NCBI GenBank assembly: GCA_965209055.1
Contig: OZ242374.1
Location: forward strand, 832,001-896,000
Source: Acidobacteriota bacterium
GTDB lineage: Bacteria; Acidobacteriota; UBA6911; RPQK01; JAJDTT01
DNA length: 64,000 bases
Direction: 5' to 3'
This document shows, piece after piece, positions 1 through 59,484 of this stretch. Position 1 is the first letter of the stretch. Each line of letters begins with the position of its first letter. Under the pieces are notes generated by a model. It had not been told where the DNA came from. It worked only from the letters and a program-made list of their open reading frames with translations, and did not search any database. A program made the position numbers and the translations under genes.

Positions 1-342
1 GGCTCGAAACCCGTCGCCCGTCAGCCGGCCCACGACTCGGGGACGCAGGGGAGTGCGTTCCGGGAATCCCCCCAGGCTTTCGATGAATTCGGCTCGCAGG
101 CGTTCCTGGTAGTCCCGGATCTGCTCCGGGGTCTTCAGCGCTTCGTACGCCTGCAGACGCCGGTCCAGCGCGGCGTGGACGAGTGGCCGGAGATGATCCT
201 GAAGCAACCGGACTTCGCCGTCCGGCTGTGCCGATGCCGGCAGCACCCGGAGATCGGTCCCGAGCGCGATTTCGGGCGTCAGGGTCCAGACAAGAACGAC
301 AAGGAGTATGCGGGCTGTGCTGGGCGCTGGGCTGGATAACAC
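1..342 (-). CDS. 5' part of a secreted alpha/beta-hydrolase (acetylxylan esterase-like), runs off the window start
   Basis: Not in the ORF track. Manual translation from GTG 342 (GAGGA upstream) gives MLSSPAPSTARILLVVLVW...EFIESLGGFPERTPLRPRVVGRLTGDGFRA: a signal-like N-terminus plus the LGGFPERTPL..R.VG segment typical of these hydrolases. Confidence 0.6.
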   Translation of the reverse strand, partial: MLSSPAPSTARILLVVLVWTLTPEIALGTDLRVLPASAQPDGEVRLLQDHLRPLVHAALDRRLQAYEALKTPEQIRDYQERLRAEFIESLGGFPERTPLRPRVVGRLTGDGFRA

Positions 343-458
343 GAACCCGAATCCTCACAGGAATTGTGTCTGCGGTCAAACGACTTCAGAATGCGGTTCG
401 CGGGGTTCCACAGTCTGTGGAGAAAGCCCCGCCCGGGACCGGGAGCGAAGGAAGGGGA

Positions 459-2075
459 ATGAAAGCGGACAGCGGGAAAGCGCACGATATCGACGTTCTC
501 ATCGTCGGAGGGGGGCACAATGGGCTGGTCGCCGGAAGTTACCTGGCGCGGGCCGGCCTGGAGGTCCAGGTCCTGGAGCGGCGGTCCATGGTCGGCGGGG
601 CCTGCATCACCGAGGAGCTCTTTCCCGGTTTCCACTTCTCCAGTTGCTCCTTCATGCTCTACGCGCTGCACCCCAAGGTTGCGGACGACCTGGAACTGCA
701 CCGATACGGTCTCCAGGTCTTTCAGGTCGATCCCTTCCTGTTTCGCCCCTACCCCGACGGCCGGCGCCTGGTGCTGCACCAGGACCCGGAACGCAACGCG
801 GAAGCCATCGGCGCGTTCTCCCGCCGGGACGCGGAGAGCTACCGGCGATGGAACCGGTTGTGGGAACGGTTCCATTCCATCGTGCACGCTTACGTGCTCA
901 CGCCCCCTCCCGCCTACGTCGATCTGGTGAGGAGGGCCAGGGAGACGGGCAACCTCGAGATCTTCAAGAAAGTCCTGATCACCAGCCACGCCGACCTGGT
1001 CGAGGAGTTCTTCGAGTCGGATCACGTCCGGGCCGCCATGATCCATTCCGGAGACCATGGCGACCCCCGGTCCATCGGAAGCGCCCTGCCGGCGGCCTTC
1101 CTGCCGGGCGACGTGGCACCCGAACGGCGGATCGTGGGCATCGTCAAGGGAGGAATGGGCGCGGTCACGCGGGCCATGGCCGCTTACCTGGAAAGCCAGG
1201 GCGGCGCCATTCGCACCGGGTGCCAGGTCCGCCGCGTCCTGGTGGAGGACGGCCGCGCCCGGGGTGTCGAACTGACCAGCGGAGAGACGATCCGAAGCCG
1301 CTTGGTCGTCTCCAACGCCGACCCCAAGCGCACCTTCCTGGACCTGGTCGAACCGGAACATCTCCCCCCGGGCTTCTGCGGTAGGGTCCGCGGCCGGCGG
1401 ACCGAGATCGGGTACTTCAAGTTCCACGCCGCCATGGATGAATTGCCCGACTTTTCCTCCTGGCTGGGAAGGGACTACGATCCGCGAATCACGGCCCGCG
1501 TCTGGATCTGCCCCTCCATCGAATACGTGCGGCGCGCCTGGCGGGACGCCCGGCGGGGCCGTCCTTCGAGGCAGCCCGTCATGTCGATCCAGATCCCCTC
1601 CGTCTACGACGACAGCATCTGCCCGCCGGGCAAGCACGTCCTGTCCATCTTCGCCGAATACGCGCCGGTCCGTCCGGCCCGGGGCAATTGGGATGAACGC
1701 CGGGAGGAGGCCGGAGAGCGGCTGATTGACGCGGTGACGGCGTATGCGCCCAACTTTCGTCGTGCTATTGCAGACTGGATGCTCTTGACGCCTCTGGACC
1801 TGGAACGCCGCGTCTACCTGACCGCCGGCAACATCCACCACCTGGACATGACGCCGAGCCAGGTCTTCTCCCGCCGGCCGCTCACGGGCTGGGCCGAGTA
1901 CCGGACCCCCGTCGAGGGCCTGTGGCTCTGCGGCGCCGGCACCCACCCGGGCGGCGAGGTCTCGGGAGCGCCCGGTCACAACGCGGCCCACGCCATCTTG
2001 CGGGATCTTCGGAGGGGCGATTCCCAATCGCCCGGTTCCCCCTCGTTTGCTGATGTCGAAAGAACCGGCGGTTAG
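459..2075 (+). CDS. Phytoene desaturase-family NAD(P)/FAD-dependent oxidoreductase
   Basis: GGGHNG dinucleotide-binding motif, ERR..VGGAC.TEE, C-terminal LWLCGAGTHPGGEVSGAPGHNAA. ATG 459 follows GAAGGGG. Confidence 0.85.
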   Translation: MKADSGKAHDIDVLIVGGGHNGLVAGSYLARAGLEVQVLERRSMVGGACITEELFPGFHFSSCSFMLYALHPKVADDLELHRYGLQVFQVDPFLFRPYPDGRRLVLHQDPERNAEAIGAFSRRDAESYRRWNRLWERFHSIVHAYVLTPPPAYVDLVRRARETGNLEIFKKVLITSHADLVEEFFESDHVRAAMIHSGDHGDPRSIGSALPAAFLPGDVAPERRIVGIVKGGMGAVTRAMAAYLESQGGAIRTGCQVRRVLVEDGRARGVELTSGETIRSRLVVSNADPKRTFLDLVEPEHLPPGFCGRVRGRRTEIGYFKFHAAMDELPDFSSWLGRDYDPRITARVWICPSIEYVRRAWRDARRGRPSRQPVMSIQIPSVYDDSICPPGKHVLSIFAEYAPVRPARGNWDERREEAGERLIDAVTAYAPNFRRAIADWMLLTPLDLERRVYLTAGNIHHLDMTPSQVFSRRPLTGWAEYRTPVEGLWLCGAGTHPGGEVSGAPGHNAAHAILRDLRRGDSQSPGSPSFADVERTGG

Positions 2076-2089
2076 GAAACCGCCGCTCC
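2066..2089. repeat. REP-like palindrome, family A (CGGCGG-N-CCGCCGCTCC)
   Basis: cggcggttaggaaaccgccgctcc overlaps the stop codon. The same family recurs at several sites in the window. Confidence 0.65.
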
Positions 2090-2104
2090 TGCTGGAGGCC
2101 GCCC

Positions 2105-3559
2105 ATGCCCCGTCCCAATCTTCTGGTGCTGATGACCGATCAGCAGCGAGCCGACACCGTGGGTCCCGCCTCTCCCTGCCGGACCCCCCACCTGGACGCC
2201 CTGGCTGCTCAGGGAACCCGGTTTCTCCGTGCCTACTCTTCCAACCCCATCTGCTCGCCCAGCCGGGCGAGCCTGATGACGGGGCTCCTGCCCCACAGCC
2301 ACGGGATGGTCGACTGCACCCATACGGTGGAGCCCTATCGCGCCGACCTGAAGCCGGGACTCCCCTTCTGGAGCCGGGAGCTTCGGGGCGCCGGGTATCG
2401 CACCGGCTACTACGGGAAATGGCACATCGAGCGCTCCAATCGGCTGGAGGATTTCGGATTCGATTCGTACGAGCTGATGGAGAGCTTCGAGGCGGCCGAT
2501 GTGGGATGCCAACGGGTTCCCGACGCCGGCTACCTGGCGCGCCGCCGGAGCCTGGGACTCCCCGAATCGGATCGCCGCTGGGAACGCAAGGGGATGGTTC
2601 GCCATCCCGGATACCGGGACCTGTTGCTGCACGGCGTCGTGGACGAGCCCGTGGAGGGAACCCGCGAGCACCACGTCTTCTCGCGCGGGATCGATTTTCT
2701 GAATGAACCGGCCCGCGGCGACCAACCGTGGTGCCTCTTCCTGAGCACCGCCGGTCCTCACGATCCCTACGTCGTGCCGCGGGAATACCGTCGCCGCTAC
2801 GACGCCCGTTCCCTGATGCCTCCCCCCAGTTTCCAGGACGATCTGGCCGGCCGTCCCGCCATCTACCGGCGGATGCGGAGCGTGTGGGACCAGATGCGGT
2901 GGTCCGATTTCGCCGAGGCCACCGCCTGCTACTACGCCTTCTGTTCCCTCGTCGACGACCAGATCGGGAGGATTCTGAGGGTCCTGGAGGAGACGGGCCA
3001 GTCGGAGAATACGCTGGTGCTGTTCCTGTCGGACCACGGTGACTACATGGGAGCCCACCGTCTGATGCTCAAGGGGGTCCCCGCCTTCGAGGAGGCTTAT
3101 CGCGTGCCCCTGATCCTGAAAGGTCCCGGGGTGAATCCGGGACAGGAGGTCCCCGAGATCGTCAGTCTGCTGGACGTGGCGCCGACCCTGACGGAGCTGA
3201 CGCTGGGAGAGGACTTCTCCTGCCACGGGCGGTCGCTGCGTCCGCTGTTGGAGGGGGACGGATCCGGCTGGGACTCGGAAGCCTACGCCGAAATGCAGGG
3301 CCAGAGAATGGCGTACACGCAACGGGTTCTCTGGAGAGACAACCACAAGTACGTCTTCAATGCCTTCGACGAAGACGAGGTCTACGACCTGGAACAGGAT
3401 CCCCACGAACTGCGCAACCTGGCCGGAAGCCGCGAGTCCCTGTGCCGGGAGATGGCGGCTCGGATGTGGGAAATCGCCCGAGCCACCGGCGACTACAACC
3501 TCTACGAGTCCCAGTACGGCTGCTTCCGCTGGGCGCCCGTGGGACCGGAGGCGCGCTAG
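2105..3559 (+). CDS. Sulfatase (formylglycine-dependent, choline-sulfatase-like)
   Basis: PNLLVLMTDQQR, CSPSRASLMTG (CxPxR), GKWH, SDHGD motifs. Confidence 0.92.
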   Translation: MPRPNLLVLMTDQQRADTVGPASPCRTPHLDALAAQGTRFLRAYSSNPICSPSRASLMTGLLPHSHGMVDCTHTVEPYRADLKPGLPFWSRELRGAGYRTGYYGKWHIERSNRLEDFGFDSYELMESFEAADVGCQRVPDAGYLARRRSLGLPESDRRWERKGMVRHPGYRDLLLHGVVDEPVEGTREHHVFSRGIDFLNEPARGDQPWCLFLSTAGPHDPYVVPREYRRRYDARSLMPPPSFQDDLAGRPAIYRRMRSVWDQMRWSDFAEATACYYAFCSLVDDQIGRILRVLEETGQSENTLVLFLSDHGDYMGAHRLMLKGVPAFEEAYRVPLILKGPGVNPGQEVPEIVSLLDVAPTLTELTLGEDFSCHGRSLRPLLEGDGSGWDSEAYAEMQGQRMAYTQRVLWRDNHKYVFNAFDEDEVYDLEQDPHELRNLAGSRESLCREMAARMWEIARATGDYNLYESQYGCFRWAPVGPEAR

Positions 3560-3564
3560 GAGGG

Positions 3565-3578
3565 GGGACTGTTAGTCC
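3565..3578. repeat. att core, left copy (GGGACTGTTAGTCC)
   Basis: Identical to 7094-7107. Contains the dyad GGACT-GTT-AGTCC. Confidence 0.85.
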
Positions 3579-3607
3579 GACGCTCTGTCCAACTGAGCTA
3601 CGGGATT
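3565..3607 (-). pseudogene. tRNA-like 5' half (acceptor 5' strand, D-arm, partial anticodon arm)
   Basis: Minus strand reads AATCCCG-TA-GCTC-AGTTGGACA-GAGC-G-TCGGA-CTAACAG-TCC. D-arm is canonical; no T-arm or 3' acceptor strand follows. Confidence 0.7.
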
Positions 3608-3627
3608 GATCCTTTCCTTTCAACAGG

Positions 3628-4734
3628 TTATCCCGATGCTCCTCTCAAATCGTTCCTCCTATTTCCTCCCCGTTGCCTGTTTGTTGCCGGTCTCATTTGT
3701 GAGTCTTCGGTAGCCTGTGCCTCCCGAATGCTGGCAAGCGCATGCGAACTGACGTACCCCGCGTAGCGCATCGTCGTGCTGATCGAGGAGTGGCCCATCA
3801 GCTTCTGCACCGTCCTCACGTCCACCCCCTGCATCAGCCAATGGCTGCACCGGAATCGTCTCAGGTCGTGAAATCCGACCTTCAACCCCACCCGCTCGGT
3901 GGCCCGGCGCAACGGCTTGTCCGGATTCACCCATCTCGTGCCGGTTCGGGTGTTGACAAAGACATATGGGGTGCTCAGGTAGCGAACCAGCCCGGTCAGG
4001 TATCCTGCGGCGTACTTCGACAGCGGGATCTCCCTCGTCTCGTCGTTCTTGGTGAATTCCACCCATAGCAGCCTCCGGGATAGATCCACCCGTTTCCAGG
4101 TGAGCGACAACGCTTCGCCTTTCCGAATCCCCGTCTCGCCGATCACGGCGATCATGGCTTGCAGGTAAGGGTTGTCCATCGCCTCGACCAGGTCGCGGAA
4201 CTGTTGAACCGTCAAGGGCCGGAAGACCTTCTTGGGTTCTTTGAGTTTGGGGAATCTCACCAGCGGGTGCGTGTCCACTTCCCCGCACTCCAGCGCGTAG
4301 GAAAACAGCTTGCTGATGGCGGCAATGTCCCGGTTCACCGTGGCCGGCTGCACTTGCTTCTTTCTCCTGGCGACGTAGCGGTACAGGTCCTTGCGTTGGA
4401 ACTCCTTCAGGGGAATGTTCCCCAGCATGGCGTTGAGGCTCTTGAACGAGAGCGCATAGCGGCGGCGGGAGCGCATGCGAGGTTTGCAATACTCCTCGAA
4501 GAAACGCTCGTAGAAGCTCCGGACCGTCCAGACGGTGCGGTTCCCGCCGGCGAGCTCCTCCTTGAGCTGCTTCCAGGTGCCGTCCAGGATGCTCGACTCG
4601 ATTCGTGTTTGAAGCGCCTGTGCGCTCCGGTAGTTGGGGGCGTACATTCGGAGCCGACCGGATCCGTTCGGCCAGTACTTGCTGACGACGTACCGTCGTC
4701 TCCCCCGGCGATCCTTCACCTTGTAGATGCCCAT
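3628..4734 (-). CDS. int: Tyrosine recombinase / phage integrase (lambda Int-like, with N-terminal arm-binding-like and core-binding domains), 368 aa
   Basis: TGIRKGE (catalytic R), TKN (K), FHDLRR (HxxR), LMGH...TTMRY (H, Y). ATG 4734 follows a strong SD (AGAAAGGAGG). Confidence 0.95.
   Translation of the reverse strand: MGIYKVKDRRGRRRYVVSKYWPNGSGRLRMYAPNYRSAQALQTRIESSILDGTWKQLKEELAGGNRTVWTVRSFYERFFEEYCKPRMRSRRRYALSFKSLNAMLGNIPLKEFQRKDLYRYVARRKKQVQPATVNRDIAAISKLFSYALECGEVDTHPLVRFPKLKEPKKVFRPLTVQQFRDLVEAMDNPYLQAMIAVIGETGIRKGEALSLTWKRVDLSRRLLWVEFTKNDETREIPLSKYAAGYLTGLVRYLSTPYVFVNTRTGTRWVNPDKPLRRATERVGLKVGFHDLRRFRCSHWLMQGVDVRTVQKLMGHSSISTTMRYAGYVSSHALASIREAQATEDSQMRPATNRQRGGNRRNDLRGASG
3674..3691 (+). 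repeat. Candidate integrase arm-type sites (tandem TGCC(T/G)GT), left end
   Basis: tgcctgtttgttgccggt matches 6971-6988 tgcctgtctgttgcctgt at 16/18. Each copy is about 100 bp inside an att core. Confidence 0.6.
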
Positions 4735-4800
4735 GCATCTCCTCCTTTCTGGATCCGGGTTCTTCGCCGTGGGGCGAATCGTACCACGGCTCCAGAGAAC

Positions 4801-4877
4801 GGACCGGTGGGACCTGTCCCCCCAGACCCCCCAGTGGCGCCAGAACCCGCGCCGGATCACCATTCCGGCGCTGAACC
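4801..4877 (-). repeat. 77-bp structured motif, copy 1 (inverted relative to 5804-5880), upstream of int
   Basis: Ungapped 60/77 identity to 5804-5880 by manual count. 8-bp stem GCGCCGGA/TCCGGCGC with loop ATGGTGA, then GGGGGGTCTGGGGGGACAGGTCC. Confidence 0.8.
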
Positions 4878-5247
4878 GGGCGCTTTTATTTGTCGCGTCC
4901 CATAAGAATGGGTCCCTCGCGCAGGATTCCCGCCGCGTCTCTCGCAGGCTTCCCGGTCGGAGCAAATCTGTCCCCGGCCGAGGTGTCGCTTGAAACCCCC
5001 TCAGGCGGGAATTCTCGTGAGATCGTGAAAAAACAAGCCCGCCATCTGGCCTGTGTTGGCCCGCCGCAGCCGGACGAAGGGTTAGGTATAGGCCCCGGAG
5101 CGTCGTCCAGAAGCCTCCGGCGCGGCGCCGGGAAACAGGCAATTCTCAGCACGGGCGCAGCCCGTTAGGTAGTCCATGAGATCCGGAGCTCGGGCGATCG
5201 GCAAGACGCGATCCTGCTTCCAGAACTCAGCCTGATGGTGAAGACGG

Positions 5248-5277
5248 CTGACGTCATCCGATCTTCTTGAGTAGAAT
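5248..5277 (+). promoter_or_regulatory. Putative sigma70-type promoter for the small membrane peptide
   Basis: CTGACG-N18-TAGAAT upstream of SD GGAGG (5311-5315). Confidence 0.35.
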
Positions 5278-5323
5278 CTGATGGAAGTGGGTCAATCGAA
5301 AGCAGGCCAGGGAGGCAAAGCAG

Positions 5324-5455
5324 ATGCGCTCAGACCACACCCCCCCCCCCACCATGCTCAGGATGGTCGTTGCCGTCGTCATCGGACTGATTGTGTTCGA
5401 GGTGGTGGCGGCGCTGTATCAGGTCGTCGCCGGGTTCTTTCTGGCGGCTTTCTGA
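5324..5455 (+). CDS. 43-aa hydrophobic membrane peptide with an internal C11 tract
   Basis: Below the ORF-track cutoff. MRSDHTPPPTMLRMVVAVVIGLIVFEVVAALYQVVAGFFLAAF; GGAGG lies 8 nt upstream of the ATG. Confidence 0.55.
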   Translation: MRSDHTPPPTMLRMVVAVVIGLIVFEVVAALYQVVAGFFLAAF

Positions 5456-5803
5456 CGTCTTGCCGGGTTTTCGGCCCCAAGAGCAATCCAAAATCACGGC
5501 GATGGTAGCCGGTCGGGCCAAGGGTTCCACCTCGATGGCCAGGCCGACATGGAAAGCGTCCTCGGTTCTGGCGATCCAGGGGAGAAAGTAAATTGCACCG
5601 GTGGGGCTGGGGGCTTGAGAGATCGGTGGCAACACTGAACTGGAGGCAAAACGACGCACCCTGTGGGAAATCTCTGATTTTCCACACGGTGGGGAGGTTC
5701 GTTGAGACGAGGCTCGATCCCTCTTTGGAGAGTTCTTTGGTGGGTATGTGTCTCTTCGCATCCGGGGGGTTCGGGGGGGCTGGCCCCACCGCTACGAGCG
5801 TCA

Positions 5804-5880
5804 GGTTCACGGTCGGCTTGGTGTGCCGAACGGGGTTCAGGCGCACCAGGGGGGTCTGGGGGGACAGGTCCACCCGGTCC
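5804..5880 (+). repeat. 77-bp structured motif, copy 2
   Basis: Stem CGGTCGGC/GCCGAACG (7 of 8 paired) with loop TTGGTGT, then the same G-rich block as copy 1. Confidence 0.8.
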
Positions 5881-5917
5881 TCGGTCTTCTTCCGGGCCTT
5901 CCCGCAGGGAGAATTGA

Positions 5918-6014
5918 GACGGGAGCGACCCCCCCAGGGGGTGTTGCGCAAATGTGAATTGCGCAACGCCCCCGCGCCCGCACCGGGCAGCAAAAAGGGG
6001 GGGTCGCTCCCGTC
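5918..6014 (+). other. Nested stem-loop (three-way junction); candidate structured RNA or ssDNA signal
   Basis: Perfect 18-bp outer stem 5918-5935/5997-6014. 15-bp inner stem 5937-5951/5959-5973 with one G-T pair on the + strand. Small GCCCG/CGGGC hairpin. Confidence 0.7.
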
Positions 6015-6240
6015 CACCTCCATTTTCCCCGTGCGGCCACCCGGTGGCCGGGAATGGGGCCGTAACTGACTGAAAGGAAAAAAGATCGGGGAGAGTGAAT
6101 TTGTGAGTCACCGGGACCGCTTTTTGTGAATCCACCCCCTTTGTCCCATTCACATCCCGGATCGGGCGCGAGACCCTCTTGACGCACGCCCGAAACGAGT
6201 CACCAATAACCTTTGCGGCGGCCGAGAGTGGTCATCTCGA

Positions 6241-6480
6241 TCACAACTGACACGGAGCGATCCTCCACCGCCGGTGCGTCGCCATCCAGGAGCGCAGACC
6301 CTCGGTGACCACCGGCTCCGGAGCGACACAGACGAGGGTGGCCCTGCCGTCCTCGACGGCAATCTGCAGTTTGAACGCCAAGTAACGCCGGGTCCTCCCC
6401 ACTGCGCCATAGGGCACTTGCCGGGGATGCTGATTCTCGGGAATGGCGTCCCGTCCGAAGGGGTCTACGGACTTGTTCAT
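6241..6480 (-). CDS. Hypothetical protein, 79 aa (element-borne)
   Basis: ATG start with GAGGGTG upstream. No motif recognised. Confidence 0.4.
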   Translation of the reverse strand: MNKSVDPFGRDAIPENQHPRQVPYGAVGRTRRYLAFKLQIAVEDGRATLVCVAPEPVVTEGLRSWMATHRRWRIAPCQL

Positions 6481-6625
6481 CCGCCGTCACCCTCGGAATG
6501 CTCTACGACATCGGATGGGAGCTACGTGAGCGTGGAGTGGACCCCCTCGACGTGCTACGGTGTCTCGAAGGTGCTCAGTAACGACCACTCAACTCAGTGG
6601 TGCAACCGAGTAAGGAGTAACCCTA

Positions 6626-6892
6626 ATGAACCCAGCCCGCGAAACAATTCCGCCCGAACGCCTTCAACAAATTGCGGCGTGGGACGGATTAGCTTCCCAA
6701 GTCGTTCTCGTGGACGTTCCGGGTCGGGGACTGGTTCCCAAACTGAGGTTGTGGTTTCAGTTCCGACGACTCGGACCACCGCCTCCGGGTAACGGGCCAA
6801 CCATTCACCAAGAAGCAGTTGTCGGTCTGGAATTTGCGCAGAGGATGGTGGACCACATATCGAGTGCAATTGCCGACGCGAAGCAGCGTTGA
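6626..6892 (+). CDS. Hypothetical protein, 88 aa (element-borne)
   Basis: AAGGAG SD 8 nt before the ATG. Globular-looking composition; no motif recognised. Confidence 0.6.
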   Translation: MNPARETIPPERLQQIAAWDGLASQVVLVDVPGRGLVPKLRLWFQFRRLGPPPPGNGPTIHQEAVVGLEFAQRMVDHISSAIADAKQR

Positions 6893-6970
6893 CGTTCACG
6901 GAGCCGCACTTGGGGCAGTTGATACGGAAGGGAGAAAAAGGGCGCGCCGGCTTTCAGGAGCCGATTCGGC

Positions 6971-6988
6971 TGCCTGTCTGTTGCCTGT
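6971..6988 (+). repeat. Candidate integrase arm-type sites, right end
   Basis: Direct-repeat partner of 3674-3691. Confidence 0.6.
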
Positions 6989-7093
6989 TCAGCATGTCAA
7001 ACATAGGGAGTCAACCACCTTACCGATTCGGCGAAGAACCCGGTAAATCACTGTAAACGTTAATGTTCGGTAGTCTTTGACTTTGGGACAGTT

Positions 7094-7107
7094 GGGACTG
7101 TTAGTCC
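7094..7107. repeat. att core, right copy (GGGACTGTTAGTCC)
   Basis: Identical to 3565-3578. Confidence 0.85.
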
Positions 7108-7113
7108 CCCTCT

Positions 7114-7265
7114 GCGGCGACTTTCCTGTCGCCCACTGGGACAGGCAACTATCTTGTCGCTTGGTCTTCTTGCCGGAAAGTGTAAAGGGGGGACTACCGT
7201 CCCCCCTCCCCCCCCTGTCGGCGGTTGGAAACCGCCGCTCCAAGTCGCCGCTCCAAGTCGTCGTT
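7114..7265. repeat. Cluster of REP-like palindromes (families A and B) between convergent host genes
   Basis: ggcgactttcctgtcgcc; aggggggactaccgtcccccct; cggcggttggaaaccgccgctcc. Confidence 0.7.
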
Positions 7266-7268
7266 CCC

Positions 7269-8015
7269 CTAGTACATGAACCACCCACCGTTGACGTCCA
7301 GGGTGGCTCCGGTGAAATACGAGGCTTCCTCCGAGGCCAGGAAGACGACGACGGAAGCGATCTCCTCCGGGTCGCCCAGCCGTCCCAGGGGAATCTGGTC
7401 GACGATCGCCGCCACCTGCTCCGACGGAATCCGCATCATGTCCGTATCGACAACTCCAGGCGCGATGGCATTCACGGTGACATCGGGAGCCAGTGTCCGG
7501 GCGTACGACTTGGTGATGGCGATGATCCCCGCCTTGGTGGCCGCATAGACCGACGAGGCGGCCACGCCTCCCGTCCGGGCGCCGACGGAGCTGATGTTCA
7601 CGATCCTTCCCGAGCCCTGCCGGACCATCACCGGCGACACCGCCTGCGACACGAAGAAGGTCCCCTTGAGGTTGATCCCCACGATCCGATCGAAGTCCGC
7701 CTCGGTCACCTCCTCCAGCGGGATTCGCGGGCAGATGGCCGCGTTGTTGACCAGGACGTCGATGCGCTCGTGCTCCGTCACGATCTTCTCGATGGCAGTC
7801 GAGATCTCCGATGGCCGGGAAATGTCAAGAGTGTAGGCGGCCGCCGACTTCCCTTCCCGGGTCAAACGATCCGCCAGTCGCCGGACTCCCTCGGTGTTGA
7901 TGTCGCAGAGCACGACCTTGGCGGACTCATTGGTGACAGCCCGGGCGATGGCCGTCCCGATCCCGCCCGCGGCTCCTGTGATCAATACGACCTTGCCGGA
8001 TAGCGTTCCCTTCAT
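7269..8015 (-). CDS. Short-chain dehydrogenase/reductase (FabG-like)
   Basis: TGAAGGIG, NNAA, YAATK (YxxxK), VNAIAPG motifs. Confidence 0.92.
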   Translation of the reverse strand: MKGTLSGKVVLITGAAGGIGTAIARAVTNESAKVVLCDINTEGVRRLADRLTREGKSAAAYTLDISRPSEISTAIEKIVTEHERIDVLVNNAAICPRIPLEEVTEADFDRIVGINLKGTFFVSQAVSPVMVRQGSGRIVNISSVGARTGGVAASSVYAATKAGIIAITKSYARTLAPDVTVNAIAPGVVDTDMMRIPSEQVAAIVDQIPLGRLGDPEEIASVVVFLASEEASYFTGATLDVNGGWFMY

Positions 8016-8037
8016 TCCTGTATTCCTCCGTCCCCAA

Positions 8038-9480
8038 TCAGACAAGCCGCCGGATCAGGTTGGACACCCGCTCGACGACGGTCTGTTCGGCGTCCGGGCG
8101 CAATGCCACCGGCATGGAATGGCTCTGCACCAGCAGGTCCGGTACGGCGTAGCGTTCGTGAACACTCCAGCCTCCTTGAGGATAGTCTTCGGCACGGGGC
8201 AGATAGGCGACGAGGCCGTTGGAGAACCCCAGGAACTGGGTGTGCTCGAAGGGCGATCGCGCCTTGACGTCCAGTCCGGTCTGAAAGAAGGCCTCGACGC
8301 TGGCGCTGGCCACGACGATGTCGTTGATCCGAATCGCCTGAATGAGCGTATCCAACGGCGGATTCCCCGCGTGCACGGCTTCGACCAGTTTTTCGGCCCA
8401 GTCGCTGAAGCGCATCGCCACGCTGATCTCCCAGTTCCTGGCGTCGCTGGTCCGGGCGTGGTCCAACTTCTGCCTCCACTCGTCACGGATGGCCTCCGCT
8501 TCCTCCAGCGGCGGCAGTTCCCCGAACTCCAACTGGATGATCTCGTCGACGGCGCCCAAATAGGTGCAGGTTTCGCCGTCGGCCGGCTCCCACGGCCAGA
8601 ACAGGATGTTGGGAATGACCCCCATGGGACGCCGCTCTTTCCCGCGACGGACGTTGGTGCGGATGTCCGCAGCCACTTTGACCACTTCGGCGCCCAGAAT
8701 CAGGCCGGTCCGGTTCTTGGTGTCCCGGCAATCCACCTCGTAACCGATCCCATGGACCGGATTGACGTTTCCGCCACAGGCCTGCAGAAAGACTGAAAGC
8801 CCGCCCAAAGTGTCTTCCACCAGATCGCGGGCCGGACCGGGAAAGTCGGAGGAGACCAGCGACGAGCGGGGGCCCATGGTCACGGTGTGGCAGCCGTAGC
8901 TGAAGCAGGTGGCGATGGGACGGCCCTCCAGATCGTCGATTCTGAGGACGCCGACAGCCGAATCGATGGGAACGCTGGGATCTTCTCCCAGGACGTCGCG
9001 GCCGTCGGGACCCGTCTCCCTCCTGTAGACGCCGATATGGGCTTTACCCCATCCCGCCCCGATCCGGGCCGGCTGCGAAGACTGGTCGGCCTCCACGCAC
9101 GTCTCCACCAGCCACTCGATGAGCCGATCCTGGTAGGCGCGTTGAAGCCTCATCTGCCCCGGCGAGTCGGGCAGGAAATCAGGCAGCGCCGGACCGCTGT
9201 GGGTATGGTTGAAATTGATCAGGACATGGGACGCCGGCGTCCCCACCGCCTCGCCGATGCGCCGCCGGATCTCGAGCGCGACAGGCAGAAAGATGACACA
9301 GATATCGATGCCGACGATAACCACCTTGCTGGCCTGATTGGAGAGCACAACGGCGGTCGCCGACAGATCCGATTCGACGGCCTGGAGCGGTTCGGCGAAC
9401 AGCCGGATCCCGGGCCGCTTCGTTCCCAGGGGAGGGTTGATGATTCTTCGGGCGGCGCCCGCACAGAGGACCTTCGACAT
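8038..9480 (-). CDS. Neutral/alkaline ceramidase-like amidohydrolase
   Basis: HTHSGP, YGCH, SSDFPG, LQACGGNVNP motifs. AAGGGAG SD. Confidence 0.75.
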   Translation of the reverse strand: MSKVLCAGAARRIINPPLGTKRPGIRLFAEPLQAVESDLSATAVVLSNQASKVVIVGIDICVIFLPVALEIRRRIGEAVGTPASHVLINFNHTHSGPALPDFLPDSPGQMRLQRAYQDRLIEWLVETCVEADQSSQPARIGAGWGKAHIGVYRRETGPDGRDVLGEDPSVPIDSAVGVLRIDDLEGRPIATCFSYGCHTVTMGPRSSLVSSDFPGPARDLVEDTLGGLSVFLQACGGNVNPVHGIGYEVDCRDTKNRTGLILGAEVVKVAADIRTNVRRGKERRPMGVIPNILFWPWEPADGETCTYLGAVDEIIQLEFGELPPLEEAEAIRDEWRQKLDHARTSDARNWEISVAMRFSDWAEKLVEAVHAGNPPLDTLIQAIRINDIVVASASVEAFFQTGLDVKARSPFEHTQFLGFSNGLVAYLPRAEDYPQGGWSVHERYAVPDLLVQSHSMPVALRPDAEQTVVERVSNLIRRLV

Positions 9481-9532
9481 TTTCAAACTCCCTTAGCGGA
9501 CCGTTTCCCGGATACGAGAGAGGACCGGTTCT

Positions 9533-11104
9533 TCATTCACCCCGAACATACACCGCGTAGAGCCTGGGGTCGCCTTCAGCCGAGGTGAGCCGGATGCGAA
9601 GCCGCACCTGCCGACCCGCAAGGTCCGAAAGCTGACCGCCGGGCCAGACCACGGAACAGTCGAGCCCTCCGCCCCGCTTCTGTAGCCACCCCGCGCCTCC
9701 GGTGCAGGAGACCGTGCCGGCGTCGGCATCGGAGTAGCCGGGGAGCAGATTGAAATCGACGCCGGACACCTCGACCCGCATTTGCGCCGCGAAATCGGCG
9801 TTCAGAAAGACCTGGGCCTCCCCCTCCGGCCAGCGGAAGGGCGCCGACCAGACCCAGCCTTCGGAGACGCCCCGAATCAACCCCACGGCGCCCCATCGAT
9901 CGCGAGGCAAGGTGGCAAGGGCGACCTCGCCATAATATTCGGGGCCCACCGGCGCGTTCCGCCAGCGGCCATGGTAGATCCAGGTCTCGTCGTCCACGTT
10001 CAAAATGCCGTTGGCCTGGCACAGGATCGTGGGGTAGTCCTTCCCGGCCACCGGCGTCACCGGAGAATCGCGCCGCGAGATGTAGACATGCTTCTTCACC
10101 GGCTCGCGAAAATGGATCCCGTCGTTGCTCACCACCAGTCCCAGGTCGCAGGTGGTGCCGCCGACTCCCGTACCGCCGTGGCGCCAGATGCCGTAAAGAC
10201 CCACCGCCACCGAGCCGTAGCTGGCCCCGCCGACGCCCAGGTGGACCTGGTCGTACTCGCCGGCGGCTCCTCTGGGACCCAGGGTCCGGGGCTCCGGCAA
10301 TCCGAAGGTCTCGGCCTGGCCCGCCAGCCAGTTTTCGAAGTCGTTGGACACCCAGGCGTAACCCCGGCGTTCGTGCAGCTCTCCACCCTCCCCAAACAGC
10401 TTTCCCTGGCCGTGAGCCAGGTAGAGCCCCTTGTGTTTGTAGAAGGAGGAGAGTTCGACGAAGACGTCGAGCGGCAGGTCTGGCCTTGCAGTCCAGGTCA
10501 ATCCGTCGCGGCTGGTGGCGGTTCGGAGGGTGGATCGGGCCAACCCGTTCAGCTTCGGTTCGGCCCACCGTTCCCGCGCAGCGATGGGATTGTAGACCAT
10601 CTTGTAGCGTCGTTCGGGATCGGTCTCCTCCTCGTCCTTGATGACGGTGACCCCCATGACCCTGTCGTCGGGCAAACGGATGGCGTTGTTTTCCAGGTTT
10701 CCCTTGATGGAGACCTGCTTCAGCGACGGCTTGATCCAACGAATGCCGTCCTCGCTCTCGGCGTAGGCGGCGGGACCCATTCCTAGTTCGGAGGGCCGGG
10801 CGCCCATACGGACCGGGTAGTACCACATGCGAAACTTGCCCTCGTCCACCATCACGGTGCCGTAGAAATGGGCCGCCAACTGGTCGGCCGCGCCGGGGTC
10901 GTCGCCACTGGGGACCAGCACCGGCTCCTTTCGGACCAGCGGCCGGGACAGGTAGTAGCAGAGGTTGCGCCGGAAGGGGAGCAGGTGGTCGTCGACGGCC
11001 AGCAGAACGATGTCCTGATGCCGTTGGGGCGCCGGTTCGACGCCGCAGGCGAGAGCAAGGGCCACTGCGCCGCAGAATAGACGCGCGACGGATCGGAGAA
11101 TCAT
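9533..11104 (-). CDS. Lipoprotein, five-bladed beta-propeller glycoside-hydrolase-like
   Basis: Lipobox LALAC. YAESEDGIRWIKP, DPERRYKMVY and C-terminal LAGRQVRLRI motifs are shared with 32993 and 42443. Confidence 0.7.
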   Translation of the reverse strand: MILRSVARLFCGAVALALACGVEPAPQRHQDIVLLAVDDHLLPFRRNLCYYLSRPLVRKEPVLVPSGDDPGAADQLAAHFYGTVMVDEGKFRMWYYPVRMGARPSELGMGPAAYAESEDGIRWIKPSLKQVSIKGNLENNAIRLPDDRVMGVTVIKDEEETDPERRYKMVYNPIAARERWAEPKLNGLARSTLRTATSRDGLTWTARPDLPLDVFVELSSFYKHKGLYLAHGQGKLFGEGGELHERRGYAWVSNDFENWLAGQAETFGLPEPRTLGPRGAAGEYDQVHLGVGGASYGSVAVGLYGIWRHGGTGVGGTTCDLGLVVSNDGIHFREPVKKHVYISRRDSPVTPVAGKDYPTILCQANGILNVDDETWIYHGRWRNAPVGPEYYGEVALATLPRDRWGAVGLIRGVSEGWVWSAPFRWPEGEAQVFLNADFAAQMRVEVSGVDFNLLPGYSDADAGTVSCTGGAGWLQKRGGGLDCSVVWPGGQLSDLAGRQVRLRIRLTSAEGDPRLYAVYVRGE

Positions 11105-11271
11105 CCGCTTGAGTTTCCCCATTTTGAGTGGAGATGGCAATCTCGTGCGCGGGGCGGCGGAGCCGATCGAACGCCTTGACGGATTTGGCCTCGGAATATT
11201 CGCCTGTTTCGCGTGGCAAACCATTGGAAACAACTCCGATACTTGCTAGACAACCTTGAAAGAAGCTAGAA

Positions 11272-11300
11272 TTGACAGCAATGAAGACACTTCTTTGCTG
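11272..11300 (+). promoter_or_regulatory. TA operon -35 (TTGACA) overlapping a palindromic operator
   Basis: CAGCAATGAAG-ACA-CTTCTTTGCTG (10/11 dyad) at 11276-11300, just upstream of the antitoxin ATG. Confidence 0.55.
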
Positions 11301-11309
11301 GCACATCTC

Positions 11310-11546
11310 ATGGCGCAACTGACTGTTCGGAACGTGACCCAGCAAGTGGTTCGTGCGCTCAAGCGGAAAGCTGCGGCCCATGGCCGATCCGCAGAAGCCG
11401 AACACAGAGAGATCCTCCGTAGGGCACTGCTTGAAAGGGAGGAGAACTTCGCCTCCCGAGCCAGGAGCCTTAGGCAACGTCTTCGATCCTCCGTCGACAG
11501 CACCGAGGGCATCAGGGCCGACCGGGATCGGGACACCTCGGAATGA
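11310..11546 (+). CDS. FitA-like ribbon-helix-helix antitoxin
   Basis: MAQLTVRNV....RALKRKAAAHGRSAEAEHREIL signature. Confidence 0.88.
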   Translation: MAQLTVRNVTQQVVRALKRKAAAHGRSAEAEHREILRRALLEREENFASRARSLRQRLRSSVDSTEGIRADRDRDTSE

Positions 11547-11971
11547 AGGGCTATGTCGTCGATGCGAGCATCGTTGTGAAGTGGTTCGTAGAGGAAATAT
11601 GGTCCGACGAGGCATCAAGCCTGCTGGAAGCCGAAACCACGCTGATCGCTCCGGAACTCCTGTTTGCCGAAGTTTCCAACGCGCTTTGGGCCATGCGCCG
11701 CCGCGGCGATATCGACAGTGCGGACCTCGCGGATGCCATCGATGCGCTGAGAGTGTCTCCGGTCGCGGTGCCTTTCTCGATGCGCCAGCTTGCCGCCGCG
11801 GCAGCCCGGCTTGCCGTCGATCTCGACCATCCGGTCTACGACTGCTTCTATCTCGCGCTTGCGGTTCAGGAACAATACCCTGTGATCACCGCTGATGCGC
11901 GGTTCCACCGCAAAGTGCGGAAACACCCCTACCTTTCTGACCGGATCATGCACTTGGCGAGTTTGACCTGA
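11543..11971 (+). CDS. vapC: VapC/PIN-domain toxin
   Basis: VVDASIVVKW, EVSNAL, YDCFYLALA, ITAD motifs. ATGA overlap with the antitoxin. Confidence 0.92.
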   Translation: MKGYVVDASIVVKWFVEEIWSDEASSLLEAETTLIAPELLFAEVSNALWAMRRRGDIDSADLADAIDALRVSPVAVPFSMRQLAAAAARLAVDLDHPVYDCFYLALAVQEQYPVITADARFHRKVRKHPYLSDRIMHLASLT

Positions 11972-12064
11972 CTGCCAGTCTGCGGGGCGAAGACCACCAC
12001 TCTGTTACTCTCATTCCCGGCTTGACCTTACCTCCGGTTCGGACCTAAACTACCTGAAACCAGG

Positions 12065-28655: not shown

Positions 28656-31600
28656 GTGAGGAAACCGGTTCGGCGCTCACGCACGACGGCAGGCGTTTTC
28701 GCCAATCTCACGCTGCTCCTCCCGCTGATCCTGCCGGCTGCCCATCTTTCCGCCCAGACCACCGCCCGAGTCAGCGTCCACGGACCCAACCGGGGAAACG
28801 GTCCCAGCCAGTACGCCCAGATCAGCGCCTCCGGACGCTTCGTCGTCTACACCTCCACCGCCTCCAACCTGGTGGACGGAGATACCAACTGGGCGTCGGA
28901 CGTCTTCGTTCACGACCGTGAAACGGGGGAGACCGCCCGCGCCAGCGTGGACGACGCGGGAAACCAGGGCAACAGTCTGAGCCAGTTTCCCAGGATCAGC
29001 TCCGGCGGCCGCATCGTCGCCTTCGAGTCGCTCGCTTCCAACCTGGTGGACGGCGACACCAACGGCGCGCTGGACGTCTTCGTCCAGGACCGCAAGTCAG
29101 GCAGGACCACGCGAGTCAGCCTCGGCAGCGGAGGGGACCAGGGCAATAGCGCCAGCGGGGTGCCCTGCCTCAGTTCCGACGGCCGTGTCGTAGCTTTCGA
29201 GTCGCTCGCCTCCAACCTGGTGGACGGCGACACCAACGAATCCACCGACGTCTTCGTCCGTGACCGCCGGACCGGGGAGACGACCCGGGTCAGCGTCGAC
29301 AGCCGGGGACGACAGGCCAACGGCTCCAGTGCCGGCTCCAGCTTGGACGGCAGCGGCCGATACGTCGCCTTCGAGTCGCTGGCCACCGACTTGGTGCCTG
29401 GAGACACAAACCGGGTGTCGGACGTCTTCGTCCATGACCGCCGGACGGGGAAGACCACCCGGGTGAGCGTCGACAGCCGCGGACGGCAGGCCAACGGCGG
29501 CAGCTCGGCGCCGAGTCTCAGCGCCGACGGACGTTTCGTGGGTTTCGGCTCCTACGGATCCACACTGGTGGACGGCGACACCAACCAGGAGATCGACGTC
29601 TTCGTCCACGACCGCCAGACGGGGGAGACCACCCGGGTGAGCGTCGACAGCCTGGGAGGACAAGCCAACGGGAGCAGCGGAATCGCCGCCCTCAGCGCCG
29701 GCGGACGATGGGTCGCCTTCCACTCCTTCGCCTCCAACCTGGTGGACGGCGACACCAACGGAACGCTGGACGTCTTCGTCCACGACCGGCTGACGGGACG
29801 GACGACCCGGACCAGCCTGACCGAAAAGGGCCGGGAATCGAACGGTCCGAGCCGCGATCCCACCATCAGCGCCGATGGCCGCTTCGTCGCCTTCGAGTCC
29901 CATGCCTCCAATCTGGTGTCTCGGGACGACAACGGGAACGTCGACGTCTTCGTCCGGGATCGGGGCGGCGCCGATCCATCCGCTGCGCTTGGCAGGCCAC
30001 AGAAATTCGAGTTGGCGGGTCGGCTCCTGGGATGGCTGCGGCGAGGCTGGGACGGCCTCGTCTCCGAAACCCGCGTGAGAGCCGAAGCCTTCACCCGGGA
30101 GCGGTTTCGGATGCCCGCCGCCGCCCTGGCCCACGCCGAATCCGCTCCGGTCCAGTTCACCGACGTGACCGAAGCAGCGGGCATCCGCTTCCGGCATTAC
30201 AAGGGGGAGACGGGGAAGCGGTACCTGCCCGAGACCATTGGTTCGGGAGTGGCAGTCCTGGACTTCGATCAGGACGGGTGGATGGACCTCTTCTTCGTCA
30301 ACGGCTGGCGCCTGGAAGGCGGAAGACCCGAGGGGGTCGGATCCGTCCTCTACCGCAACCGGGGCGACGGCACGTTTGACGACGTGACCCGGGAGGCGGG
30401 GCTGGAAGTACACGCCTACGGCATGGGGGCGGCGGCCGGAGACTATGACAACGACGGCTTTCCGGACCTCTACGTGACGATTCTGGGCCTCAACCGGCTC
30501 TACCGGAACAACGGCGACGGGACCTTTTCCAACGTGAGCGTCGATGCCGGCGTCGGCAACCCCTCCTGGGGGGCGAGCGCGGCCTGGCTGGACGCCGACA
30601 ACGACGGCAAGCTCGATCTCTTCGTGACCAACTACGTCCGTTGGAGCCCCTCCCAGGACCAGTGGTGCGGTTACGGCCCCGGAGCCAAGCACTACTGCAC
30701 TCCCGAGATCTTCACCGGTGACACTTCGCGCCTCTTTCGCAACCGGGGCGGCGGACGATTCCGGGACGTCACCAGGGAGGCGGGACTGTTCAACCCCTCG
30801 GGCAAGGCCTTGGGAGTGGCCCTTTGGGATTTCGACGGGAACGGGTTGATGGATCTCGTGGTGGCCGAGGACACTCAGCCCGACAAGATCTACCTGAACC
30901 GGGGCGGCTTCCGCTTCGAGGAGGTGGGCACTCGCAACGGATTCGGCTTTTCCGAAGCGGGCCTGGCCCGGGCCGGCATGGGAGTCGATGTGGCCGACAC
31001 TGACAACGACGGTCGAGGAGCGGTGGCCGTCACCAATTTCTCCTACGAGGGGATTGGCTTCTACCGCTGGGACAGCGGCCTGAACTTCATCGATCAGGCC
31101 GCTCCGGCGGGCATCGGGCAACCCAGTCTATTGACCCTGGGCTTCGGACTCCTCTTTCTGGACTACGATCTGGACGGTTGGCAAGACCTGCTGGCGGTCA
31201 ACGGCCATATCGACGACCTGGTGGAGACGGTTCAGACCCGGCTGACCTACCGGCAACGGCCGCTCCTGTTTCGCAACCAGAGGGACGGCCGCTTCCTGCC
31301 CATGGGCGGGGAGGCGGGTCCCGCTCTGGAGCGAGCTTATGTCGGCCGCGGCGCCGCAGCCATCGACTACGACAACGACGGTGACCTGGATCTGGTCGTG
31401 ACGGAGAACGGAGGTCCGGGTCGCCTGTTTCGCAACCAGGGGGGAAACCGAAACCACTGGCTCCAGATCCGGCTCGTCGGCGGCAGCTCCAACCGGGACG
31501 GTATCGGCGCCCTGGTCACCGTGAAATCGGGTTCCACAACCCAACGGCGCTACCGCCGAAGCGGCTCCAGCTATCTCTCCGAGAGCGATCCGCGGCTGAC

Positions 31601-35929: not shown

Positions 35930-35970
35930 CGGAGCGGCGGATTCCAACCGCCGATGGGGGAAGACAGCTC

Positions 35971-37248: not shown

Positions 37249-37250
37249 TG

Positions 37251-37324
37251 GGAGCGGCGATTCTCTTTCCGCCGGTTTCTTGATCGATTTTTCGGGAAGA
37301 AGAATGGGCGACAGGAAAGTCGCC
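37251..37324. repeat. REP-like palindromes (family A) between convergent genes
   Basis: ggagcggcgattctctttccgccg; gggcgacaggaaagtcgccc. Confidence 0.6.
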
Positions 37325-59448: not shown

Positions 59449-59484
59449 AGAGGCGAAGGATCCGGCGGTCCAGGAGAGGTGGAG

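Follow-up and report, generated by a model that had tools for sequence, protein, structure and literature searches.

A covarying multi-hairpin module at the backbone joints of integrase islets and plasmids in marine Acidobacteriota, with a tentative role at transcript 3′ ends

In the 64,000-nucleotide stretch of DNA analyzed here (the window, G000:832001-896000, where G000 is the host genome, a single 6.08-Mb contig), two inverted copies of a motif, A and B, lie between a tyrosine integrase gene (int) and a repeated module that we term R1. We found that both are true copies of a small folded DNA or RNA module, which, in marine Acidobacteriota, forms part of the noncoding backbone not only of integrase islands but also of a small plasmid and of a conjugative element. 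Our preferred, though tentative, reading of sequence and position is that the module serves as a multi-hairpin 3′ end, terminator, or insulator, derived from the repetitive extragenic palindromes (REPs) of the host and placed at joints between the backbone modules of mobile elements. Coordinates are window positions unless prefixed.

Copy A occupies 4801 to 4885 on the minus strand (G000:836801-836885; 97.5 bits with the covariance model described below, and supported by alignment), and copy B occupies 5796 to 5880 on the plus strand (G000:837796-837880; 88.7 bits). The int module ends near 4800, and the unit from 4801 to 5880 exactly fills the space from there to R1. A first-pass annotation, made from the letters of this DNA, had described an inverted match at these sites, and we confirmed it: when 4801-4877 is reverse-complemented, it is identical to 5804-5880 at 60 of 77 positions without gaps, with GGTTC flanking the hairpin on both sides and a third G block nearby. 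The two inner stems, GCGCCGGA/TCCGGCGC and CGGTCGGC/GCCGAACG, were likewise recovered, the latter with one G·A mismatch. By repeat search, the inverted arms reach 4801-4884 and 5797-5880 (84 nucleotides, 77% complementary, 912 nucleotides apart). The 23-nucleotide G block GGGGGGTCTGGGGGGACAGGTCC is exact in both copies, which are its two occurrences in the window with three mismatches allowed; the expected count from 100 shuffles was 0.00.

Read along its own strand, copy A consists of a GAGCGC clamp, a long hairpin with an internal loop, a CAC-TGGGGGGTC-TGGGGGGAC block, and a GGTCC end. The A2 hairpin (4886 to 4922, minus strand; GTCCCAT-NNNN-ATGGGAC within a CGCGC clamp), identified from alignments and folds, is the 5′ neighbor of the motif in every A-type module. 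The third G block, G6-TTC-G7 (GGGGGGTTCGGGGGGG; 5764 to 5783, plus strand), is found upstream of B-type copies only, and the C2 module (5646 to 5757, plus strand), with the hairpin CCCTGTGGGAAA..TTTTCCACACGG, accompanies the motif in several islets. Across copies, the motif is an 85-nucleotide core, with lengths from 76 to 87 nucleotides, laid out as GAGCGC, a hairpin whose stem has at most 20 pairs and whose loop has 7 nucleotides, GGCGCCAC, TGGGGGGTC-TGGGGGGA, a short palindrome (G6A..TC6), and CCGGTCC. The full module measures about 125 to 195 nucleotides and has four hairpins, in the order A2, the long covarying hairpin with the G-run behind it, the G6A..TC6 palindrome, and a fourth hairpin present in full modules. 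A full module of about 150 nucleotides folds into four hairpins on both strands, with z scores of -3.2 and -3.1. Protein coding through the motif was rejected, as the copies use all three frames and differ in core length. A promoter scan detected neither a sigma-70 nor a sigma-54 promoter within the motif, and nothing convincing was seen by eye. ARAGORN called no tRNA or tmRNA gene in 1-12000, and Rfam 15 gave no match at E values up to 1 over 3000-9000, which says little for a new family.

The stem of the motif has been kept by compensatory change. In a MAFFT alignment of the 12 distinct G000 copies, made independently of the covariance model, 11 of the 20 main-helix pairs were altered on both sides, and 87% of the cells were paired as compared to 38 to 54% with a slid partner; none of 500 shuffles matched this. 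A set of 25 distinct sequences from seven genomes or records, fitted to the covariance model, showed 14 of 20 stem pairs altered on both sides and 88.4% pairing versus 36 to 54% after sliding, and none of 500 shuffles attained its covariation score. Copies inside one genome are not independent, and about five junction types underlie the 22 copies of G000. At least seven distinct inner stems occur, including the two given above as well as CTGGCGGC/GCCGCCAG and AAAGAGTCCGGC/GCCTGACTCTTT; GTGGAGGC/GCCTCCAC and CGGCCAGC/GCTGGCCG are further ones, and a copy on contig L097 carries a perfect 20-bp stem in which GAACCC replaces the 5′ GGTTCA. The loop letters drift while the stems are retained, and the G block is nearly invariant. 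The covariation in both sets thus supports the idea, already put forward in the first-pass annotation, that what is under selection is the fold of a single strand and not the identity of the duplex, and we conclude that the motif functions as a folded single strand. That A and B diverged in their stems, with compensation, but retained the G block argues for function.

The covariance model, built from the 12 distinct G000 copies, detected 22 copies in G000 at 74 to 102 bits, while the next match scored 31.6 bits. Among 101 relatives, strong copies were found in three sister genomes only (three in G001, one in G002, and six in G004), and in a phylum sample of 401 genomes, the module was present in four, all of one genus. 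An exact-pattern scan of species genomes added three records, which are metagenome-assembled genomes of marine Acidobacteriota. Outside the genus, the motif lies in three places: on L096 (G101:C1), a contig built from identical repeats of a 4,384-bp unit that encodes a NikA-like protein and a MobA/VirD2 relaxase; on L097, between a different tyrosine integrase and genes for VirB11 and the type IV coupling protein (T4CP); and on a 1.9-kb contig together with an int fragment and R1. The G002 copy is situated among an integrase fragment, a weak PriCT match, and X-like and XhlA-like open reading frames (ORFs), where X denotes a small protein family treated below. Homologs of the small genes next to the module, X and a coiled-coil ORF, travel along with it. 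A metagenome scan with the G-block pattern returned 15 loci, none of which was the motif (best 42.3 bits); they represented an unrelated conserved stretch and REP-like palindromes of other organisms. A scan of viral contigs gave no loci, and a literature search at the level of listings and abstracts found no paper on this motif or on REP-targeting integrase islets in this lineage.

All 22 G000 copies lie 16 to 371 nucleotides from an int or R1 module, except for one at 1,229 nucleotides from R1, and in none of the genomes searched was a copy detected outside a mobile-element context. The annotation had named a genome-wide REP or miniature inverted-repeat transposable element (MITE), or homologs that lose the stem, as outcomes that would speak against its proposal. 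As the covariance-model search showed the motif to be confined to mobile elements and its further homologs to preserve the stem, neither was found. The association is not obligatory: the motif occurs within 600 nucleotides of 10 of the 28 int copies and 11 of the 62 R1 copies, leaving 18 and 51 copies, respectively, that are devoid of it. G001 carries three motif copies and lacks this integrase, as does the plasmid. Because the motif is missing from most int and R1 copies, and is present in G001 where int is absent, it cannot be an essential recombination or transfer site.

The placement of the module follows a rule of orientation. Of the 22 copies, 21 have the G-rich 3′ end turned toward either the int ATG (10 copies, at 67 to 352 nucleotides) or the start of R1 (11 copies, at 16 to 371 nucleotides). 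The edges of the module are sharp, at ...CCGGTCC and CTGGAAG..., and are met by at least eight different flanks in both orientations. Wherever its neighbors are intact, the module sits in the gap between the 3′ ends of converging ORFs, although the gene calls for several loci, including G002 and the host REP contexts discussed below, are crude ORF picks based on G+C content at third codon positions. On L097, its neighbors are int and a small coiled-coil ORF; in G002, a PriCT-like and an XhlA-like ORF; and in type-4 islets, an X remnant and a zinc-ribbon ORF. On L096, the X gene ends 9 nucleotides from it. Full modules still have the final codons of X attached; at a paralogous X-C2 locus devoid of the module, an ordinary hairpin takes its place. 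Relative to X, the module occurs in both orientations. Its orientation relative to R1 also varies among single-copy elements, being the same in type 3 and opposite in type 4. In A-type modules, the long hairpin is followed on the C-rich strand by a T-rich tract, for example, TTTTATTTGT or TTTTGTTTGT, with six to eight T residues in the 10 nucleotides after the stem.

The architecture of the module resembles that of the host REPs. The host REP family, with 146 BLAST hits, is separate from the motif and far more abundant; its units are built around a GGCGGTTGGAAACCGCC-GCTCC hairpin, some also have a G6AC..GTC6 palindrome, and tandem runs are frequent. One unit (G6AC-TACC-GTC6, a C run, and the GGCGGTTGGAAACCGCC hairpin; 7169 to 7260, plus strand) adjoins the right end of the islet that contains int and R1. 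On the same strand, host REPs share the order of parts with the motif, namely GAGC(G), hairpin, and G7-TTA-G6AC-NNNN-GTC6. Weak matches of the motif model in G000 (E values of 0.013 to 0.4) fall mostly at places that also appeared in the REP comparison, and in the sister genome G008, a REP doublet, GAGCG-hairpin-hairpin-G7-TTA-G6AC-GGAA-GTC6, aligns with the model over the full length (39.5 bits). With the crude gene calls, 16 of the 42 G blocks of host REPs follow a gene on the same strand and 15 precede a gene on the opposite strand; thus, host REPs are mostly placed at gene 3′ ends in either orientation. We infer from these parallels that the module looks like a specialized derivative of host REP units. 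It shares with REPs and bacterial interspersed mosaic elements the GC-rich imperfect palindromes with compensatory change, the clustering of hairpins, the location at gene 3′ ends and in convergent gaps, and the use as insertion targets. In contrast to them, it is not spread genome-wide, its 22 copies being confined to int or R1 modules and their surroundings; it is also longer, has a nearly invariant 17-nucleotide G block, and is carried between genomes on plasmids and islands. No link of the module to any gene for a REP-associated tyrosine transposase was made; two weak Y1_Tnp matches (30.8 and 23.6 bits) were present in G000, one of them beside an int copy.

According to the role that we tentatively prefer, the module would act at the RNA level and close transcription units at the backbone joints. 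In the window, the two copies face outward from a small cargo, A toward int and B toward R1. Copy A ends 17 nucleotides upstream of the hexamer TACGAT, which is preceded by TGG within an extended -10-like element (TGGTACGAT, 4786-4778), and copy B ends 29 nucleotides upstream of the -10-like GAGAAT of R1. As the copies end upstream of these boxes, transcripts of the cargo would stop or be processed before reaching int and R1, and the copies could thereby shield int and R1, a candidate transfer origin, from cargo-born transcription. The position of TGGTACGAT downstream of copy A also suggests that A lies upstream of the int promoter rather than inside the int mRNA, and so the proposal of the first-pass annotation that one copy is part of the int leader RNA was not supported. 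Like intrinsic terminators and small RNAs (sRNAs) from 3′ untranslated regions, the module has a GC-rich hairpin, which in A-type modules is joined on one strand to a T-rich tract, occupies gaps between converging genes, and has stems that covary while loops drift. It differs from them by its four hairpins in a row, its invariant G/C block, its conservation across unrelated replicons, and the lack of a U-tract on the G-rich strand.

Several observations weigh against such a role. B-type copies have no T-rich tail. Where a tail exists, it lies on the C-rich strand, yet the orientation rule and the wobble pairs favor the G-rich strand, which has no U-tract; the wobble bias itself (about five G·T versus two A·C events) is not significant. 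The 17-nucleotide block TGGGGGGTCTGGGGGGA, nearly invariant in the 25 sequences, exceeds what a plain terminator needs, and the 80 to 85% identity of modules between otherwise unrelated replicons is unusual for terminators. Furthermore, the promoters of int and R1 are predicted from consensus readings only.

The first-pass annotation had instead proposed paired priming or nicking signals. Put more broadly, the module could be a single-strand DNA initiation or processing signal, that is, a priming site resembling a single-strand initiation (ssi) or single-strand origin (sso) sequence, or a secondary nick or termination site on the folded strand, with one copy per strand; we regard this as unlikely. 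The part of the proposal that stood is the setting, as the motif is found only on elements expected to pass through single-stranded DNA: the R1 islets, the tandem-unit contig with NikA-like and relaxase genes, and the contig with an integrase, VirB11, and T4CP. The anatomy is also suggestive, with a covarying hairpin beside an invariant flank that holds two CTG-G6 nine-mers, a cluster of hairpins, and an inverted pair in the window, and the plasmid-bearing genome G101 encodes two PF16793 RepB-type primases. The part that did not stand concerns the machinery and the arrangement. PF16793 was found in only one of five genomes searched (G101) and was not detected in the motif-bearing G000, G001, and G004; the G000 chromosome, despite its 22 copies, has no PF03432 relaxase either, and the relaxase protein of the plasmid was not found in G000, G001, G002, G004, or G102, in a search without a positive control. 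No co-occurring enzyme was found for the motif, which moreover stands in either orientation to R1 and is absent from 18 of 28 int islets and from the resident type IV secretion system (T4SS) element. The usual place of an origin of transfer (oriT) is upstream of nikA, and the plasmid motif lies about 650 nucleotides from that place at the nikA-like gene. As compared to the oriT of MOBP and MOBQ plasmids, the module has a similar inverted repeat with covarying arms beside a conserved flank, and it resides on a plasmid with NikA-like and relaxase genes; however, it is not beside the nikA-like gene, no relaxase was found in G000, and R1 is the better oriT candidate. In RSF1010, ssiA and ssiB are two 40-nucleotide inverted repeats, one per strand, with a hairpin at nucleotides 7 to 27 and priming at T32 (PMC8567376). 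The likeness lies in the hairpin with specific flanks, the inverted copies with one per strand, and the mobilizable replicon, while the module differs by a core of 85 rather than 40 nucleotides, by copies 237 to 912 nucleotides apart instead of adjacent, and by the many elements with a single copy in either orientation. A further difference is that three of the four motif-bearing genomes tested have no RepB′ primase. With the same low probability, the module might represent a new kind of ssi, a four-hairpin site with an invariant CTG-G6-T-CTG-G6 start block for second- or leading-strand priming of mobilizable defense islets and small plasmids, a family of acidobacterial elements that is so far unstudied. 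The inverted pair in the minimal islet might then, by analogy to IncQ plasmids, provide a separate start on each strand, although sequence and enzyme would be unrelated. If true, this would be the first priming signal of the sort outside the classical plasmid families.

A duplex binding site, either for the integrase (arm-type or core-like half-sites) or for X, with a part in promoter control or in inversion or exchange of the cargo, appears improbable. The tandem nine-mers TGGGGGGTC/TGGGGGGAC and the GGGAC..GTCC palindrome could be putative binding sites, the G block resembles both the integrase target AGGAGGGGGGAC-TGTTA-GTCCCCCC and an extra GGGACAGTT beside the right attachment core, and the copies end 17 and 29 nucleotides upstream of the -10-like boxes. 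X is beside the module on L096, occurs as remnants in type-4 islets, and has an X-like counterpart about 750 nucleotides from the G002 module; the module is found in both orientations relative to X. The stem covariation, however, is not expected of a duplex operator, the palindrome spacer measures 2 to 4 nucleotides as compared to 5 in the attachment core, types 3 and 4 do not retain the GGGAC half-site, and neither G001 nor the plasmid has this integrase; the ribbon-helix-helix-like character that we assign to the N terminus of X is a sequence reading with no Pfam match. As for inversion, all eight paired arrangements (four of the window type and two of the 4496 type in G000, and two in G004) share one internal orientation. 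Four DNA-like contig sets from one sample cover most of the window, with depth following copy number (the RNA runs listed contain 0.06 to 0.07 of the window words), and none of the 11 joints listed from these four runs changes strand, although contigs may drop rare forms. On these grounds, an inverton was rejected. Integron attC/attI sites and invertons of the fimS or hin type share with the module a tyrosine recombinase next door, a primacy of structure over sequence (attC), and inverted repeats around a short segment (invertons). In the present case, however, the integrase is not IntI, its sites are the islet ends, most islets have no motif, and no inverted form was seen. The same location of the core GGGACTGTTAGTCC at the islet ends, with empty sites elsewhere, ruled out the motif as the attachment site of the integrase.

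Still less probable, in our estimate, is a selfish REP- or MITE-like passenger, a nonautonomous sequence moved by a single-strand transposase or by recombination into safe gaps between two 3′ ends of mobile elements, to which it would be of no use. The sharp module ends with at least eight flanks in both orientations, the kinship to REPs, and the two weak Y1_Tnp matches are compatible with it. On the other hand, neither a target duplication nor terminal inverted repeats that exceed noise were detected, no copy was seen outside mobile elements in the genomes searched, and the compensated stem divergence around a kept G block argues for function; with only about five junction types in G000, the high copy number is better explained by the spread of islets than by movement of the module itself. 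A MITE was also excluded directly. A 321-nucleotide stretch around a full module contains internal hairpins only, the flanks CAGAGAAC and TCGGTCTT share nothing, and a MITE made of A plus B is contradicted by the absence of a target duplication and by a pair that never occurs outside the int-R1 frame. We give the lowest probability, a slim one, to an sRNA from the C-rich strand, which might be cut from the 3′ untranslated region of an upstream small gene and would consist of an invariant C-rich seed (UCCCCCCAGACCCCCCAG), the covarying terminator hairpin, and a U-rich tail. Bacterial sRNAs typically combine an invariant single strand, a covarying stem, and a T-rich tail, and the module matches this pattern. 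Small genes run into its C-rich side on L097, in G002, and in type-4 islets, and GACCCCCC in the seed could pair with the invariant GGGGGGGTC of R1. Yet in the window, neither copy has a gene or promoter ahead of it on the C-rich strand, the tail is missing from B-type copies, the wobble pairs lean to the other strand, and Rfam gave no match.

To our knowledge, the mobile elements of Acidobacteriota are almost unstudied, and the motif provides a clean case of structure kept by compensatory change in their backbone. It marks the joints of a modular system made of a REP-targeting islet with 28 int copies, swappable defense-like cargo, and the 62-copy R1. Knowledge of its action, be it to halt transcription, to initiate DNA synthesis, or to bind a protein, would show how islets insulate the integrase and the transfer origin from a changing cargo, and it could supply a compact boundary part for high-GC bacteria.

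The integrase next to copy A is a 368-amino acid protein encoded at 3628 to 4734 on the minus strand (Pfam Phage_integrase, 3.6e-28). An ORF listed at 3659-4738 was rejected as an off-frame artifact with no Pfam, NCBIfam, or Protein Data Bank match. The protein scores far below the cut-offs for Xer recombinases and for IntI (in the IntI test, TIGR02249, 61.6 bits versus 265, and NF011946, 28.4 versus 435). G000 contains 28 int copies with 87 to 96% nucleotide identity, and sister genomes contain 0 to 11. The alignment of the 28 leaders defines a conserved int leader at 4735 to 4800 (minus strand). Three int copies (G000:784165-786078, 3708107-3710022, and 5306068-5307983) are split at one point by an insertion of about 1.9 kb, just inside the int start (window equivalent 4722-4725), which may be an insertion sequence with a preferred site.

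The islet spans about 3.5 kb (3565-7107) and is bounded by the direct repeat GGGACTGTTAGTCC. As established from the repeat and from occupied and empty sites, its attachment cores are attL at 3565 to 3578, the left end, and attR at 7094 to 7107, the right end, both on the plus strand. Comparison of occupied and empty sites, the latter found elsewhere in the genome, identified attB as a REP-like palindrome, AGGAGGGGGGAC-TGTTA-GTCCCCCC. A joint between 3578 and 7093, which would correspond to excision, was seen in one run, but its shorter side spans 21 letters, which is too short to count. In our reading, the left arm (3579-3612, minus strand) is an apparent tRNA 5′ half, with D arm and anticodon stem, that ends at the attachment core, although ARAGORN calls none; this suggests that the islet descends from a tRNA-targeting element that moved to REP palindromes. 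The conserved right arm, R4, covers 6924 to 7110 (plus strand).

The cargo between the motifs (5248 to 5455, plus strand) comprises a sigma-70-like site at 5248-5277 and a 43-amino acid hydrophobic ORF at 5324-5455. The ORF follows a GGGAGG site and contains a C11 run (5340-5350) that is 3 nucleotides shorter in the contigs of all four DNA runs; it may be a gene with a variable tract that encodes a small membrane peptide or a toxin-like product. In G004, the islet has no counterpart of 5108-5541. Larger islets hold MmeI-like, Eco57I-like methylase, AbiTii, Abi-alpha, FRG-domain, and NucS-like genes between the conserved modules, with defense-like cargo at L072:6410-9280, at L073:2240-3178, 4547-5404, and 9613-10425, and at L074:3526-6321 and 7106-8161.

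R1 (5896 to 6275, plus strand) starts with GCCTTCCCGCAGGGA and has a perfect 18-bp outer stem (5918-5935/5997-6014). It always begins at GCCTTCCCGC and is sharply bounded, and its long covarying hairpin is followed by invariant stretches. Several R1 copies abut N-terminal fragments of the coupling-protein gene, and in the resident T4SS cluster, R1 is directly upstream of that gene (G000:1832114-1832256), as it is on L097 (5130-5300), which carries both the motif and R1. R1 is therefore a candidate oriT of acidobacterial conjugative elements, and the islets may accordingly be mobilizable. In islets, R1 heads the defense-gene cargo, sometimes in arrays. The T4SS cluster (G000:1826760-1846000; L120 and L121) encodes ArdC, T4CP, VirB8, VirB6, VirB10, VirB9, VirB4, VirB2 pilin, and a CHC2 primase-helicase (at about 1,841,222-1,843,327); R1 is present in it (1.826-1.846 Mb), while neither a motif copy nor a recognizable relaxase was found there. 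In G101, the two PF16793 genes lie about 15 kb from copies of the coupling-protein gene.

L096, at 20,989 bp, probably represents a concatemeric assembly of a small mobilizable plasmid. Each of its 4,384-bp units holds a 320-amino acid ORF (weakly KorA-like), X, the NikA-like gene, the relaxase, which belongs to PF03432, and one motif. The proteins of the X family are small and end in ...TATVxEVxxRRxDFxLVRDSGKP. A small ORF for a coiled-coil membrane protein often follows the X gene, which is repeatedly found next to the motif, with loci at G000:3846500-3847000, 3377100-3377510, and 3164326-3164493 and at L096:2735-3160.

Upstream of the islet, the flank at 1-3550, with genes for a flavin adenine dinucleotide oxidoreductase-like protein and a sulfatase, is duplicated at G000:201418-204967 with 98.6% identity, and the homology stops 8 nucleotides before the sulfatase stop codon, about 5 nucleotides before the islet. 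Elsewhere in the window, tandem duplicates of about 1.2 kb (34717-35944 and 36036-37263) share 85% identity, and two other repeat sets, at 28788-29955 and 58479-60640, show about 73% identity.

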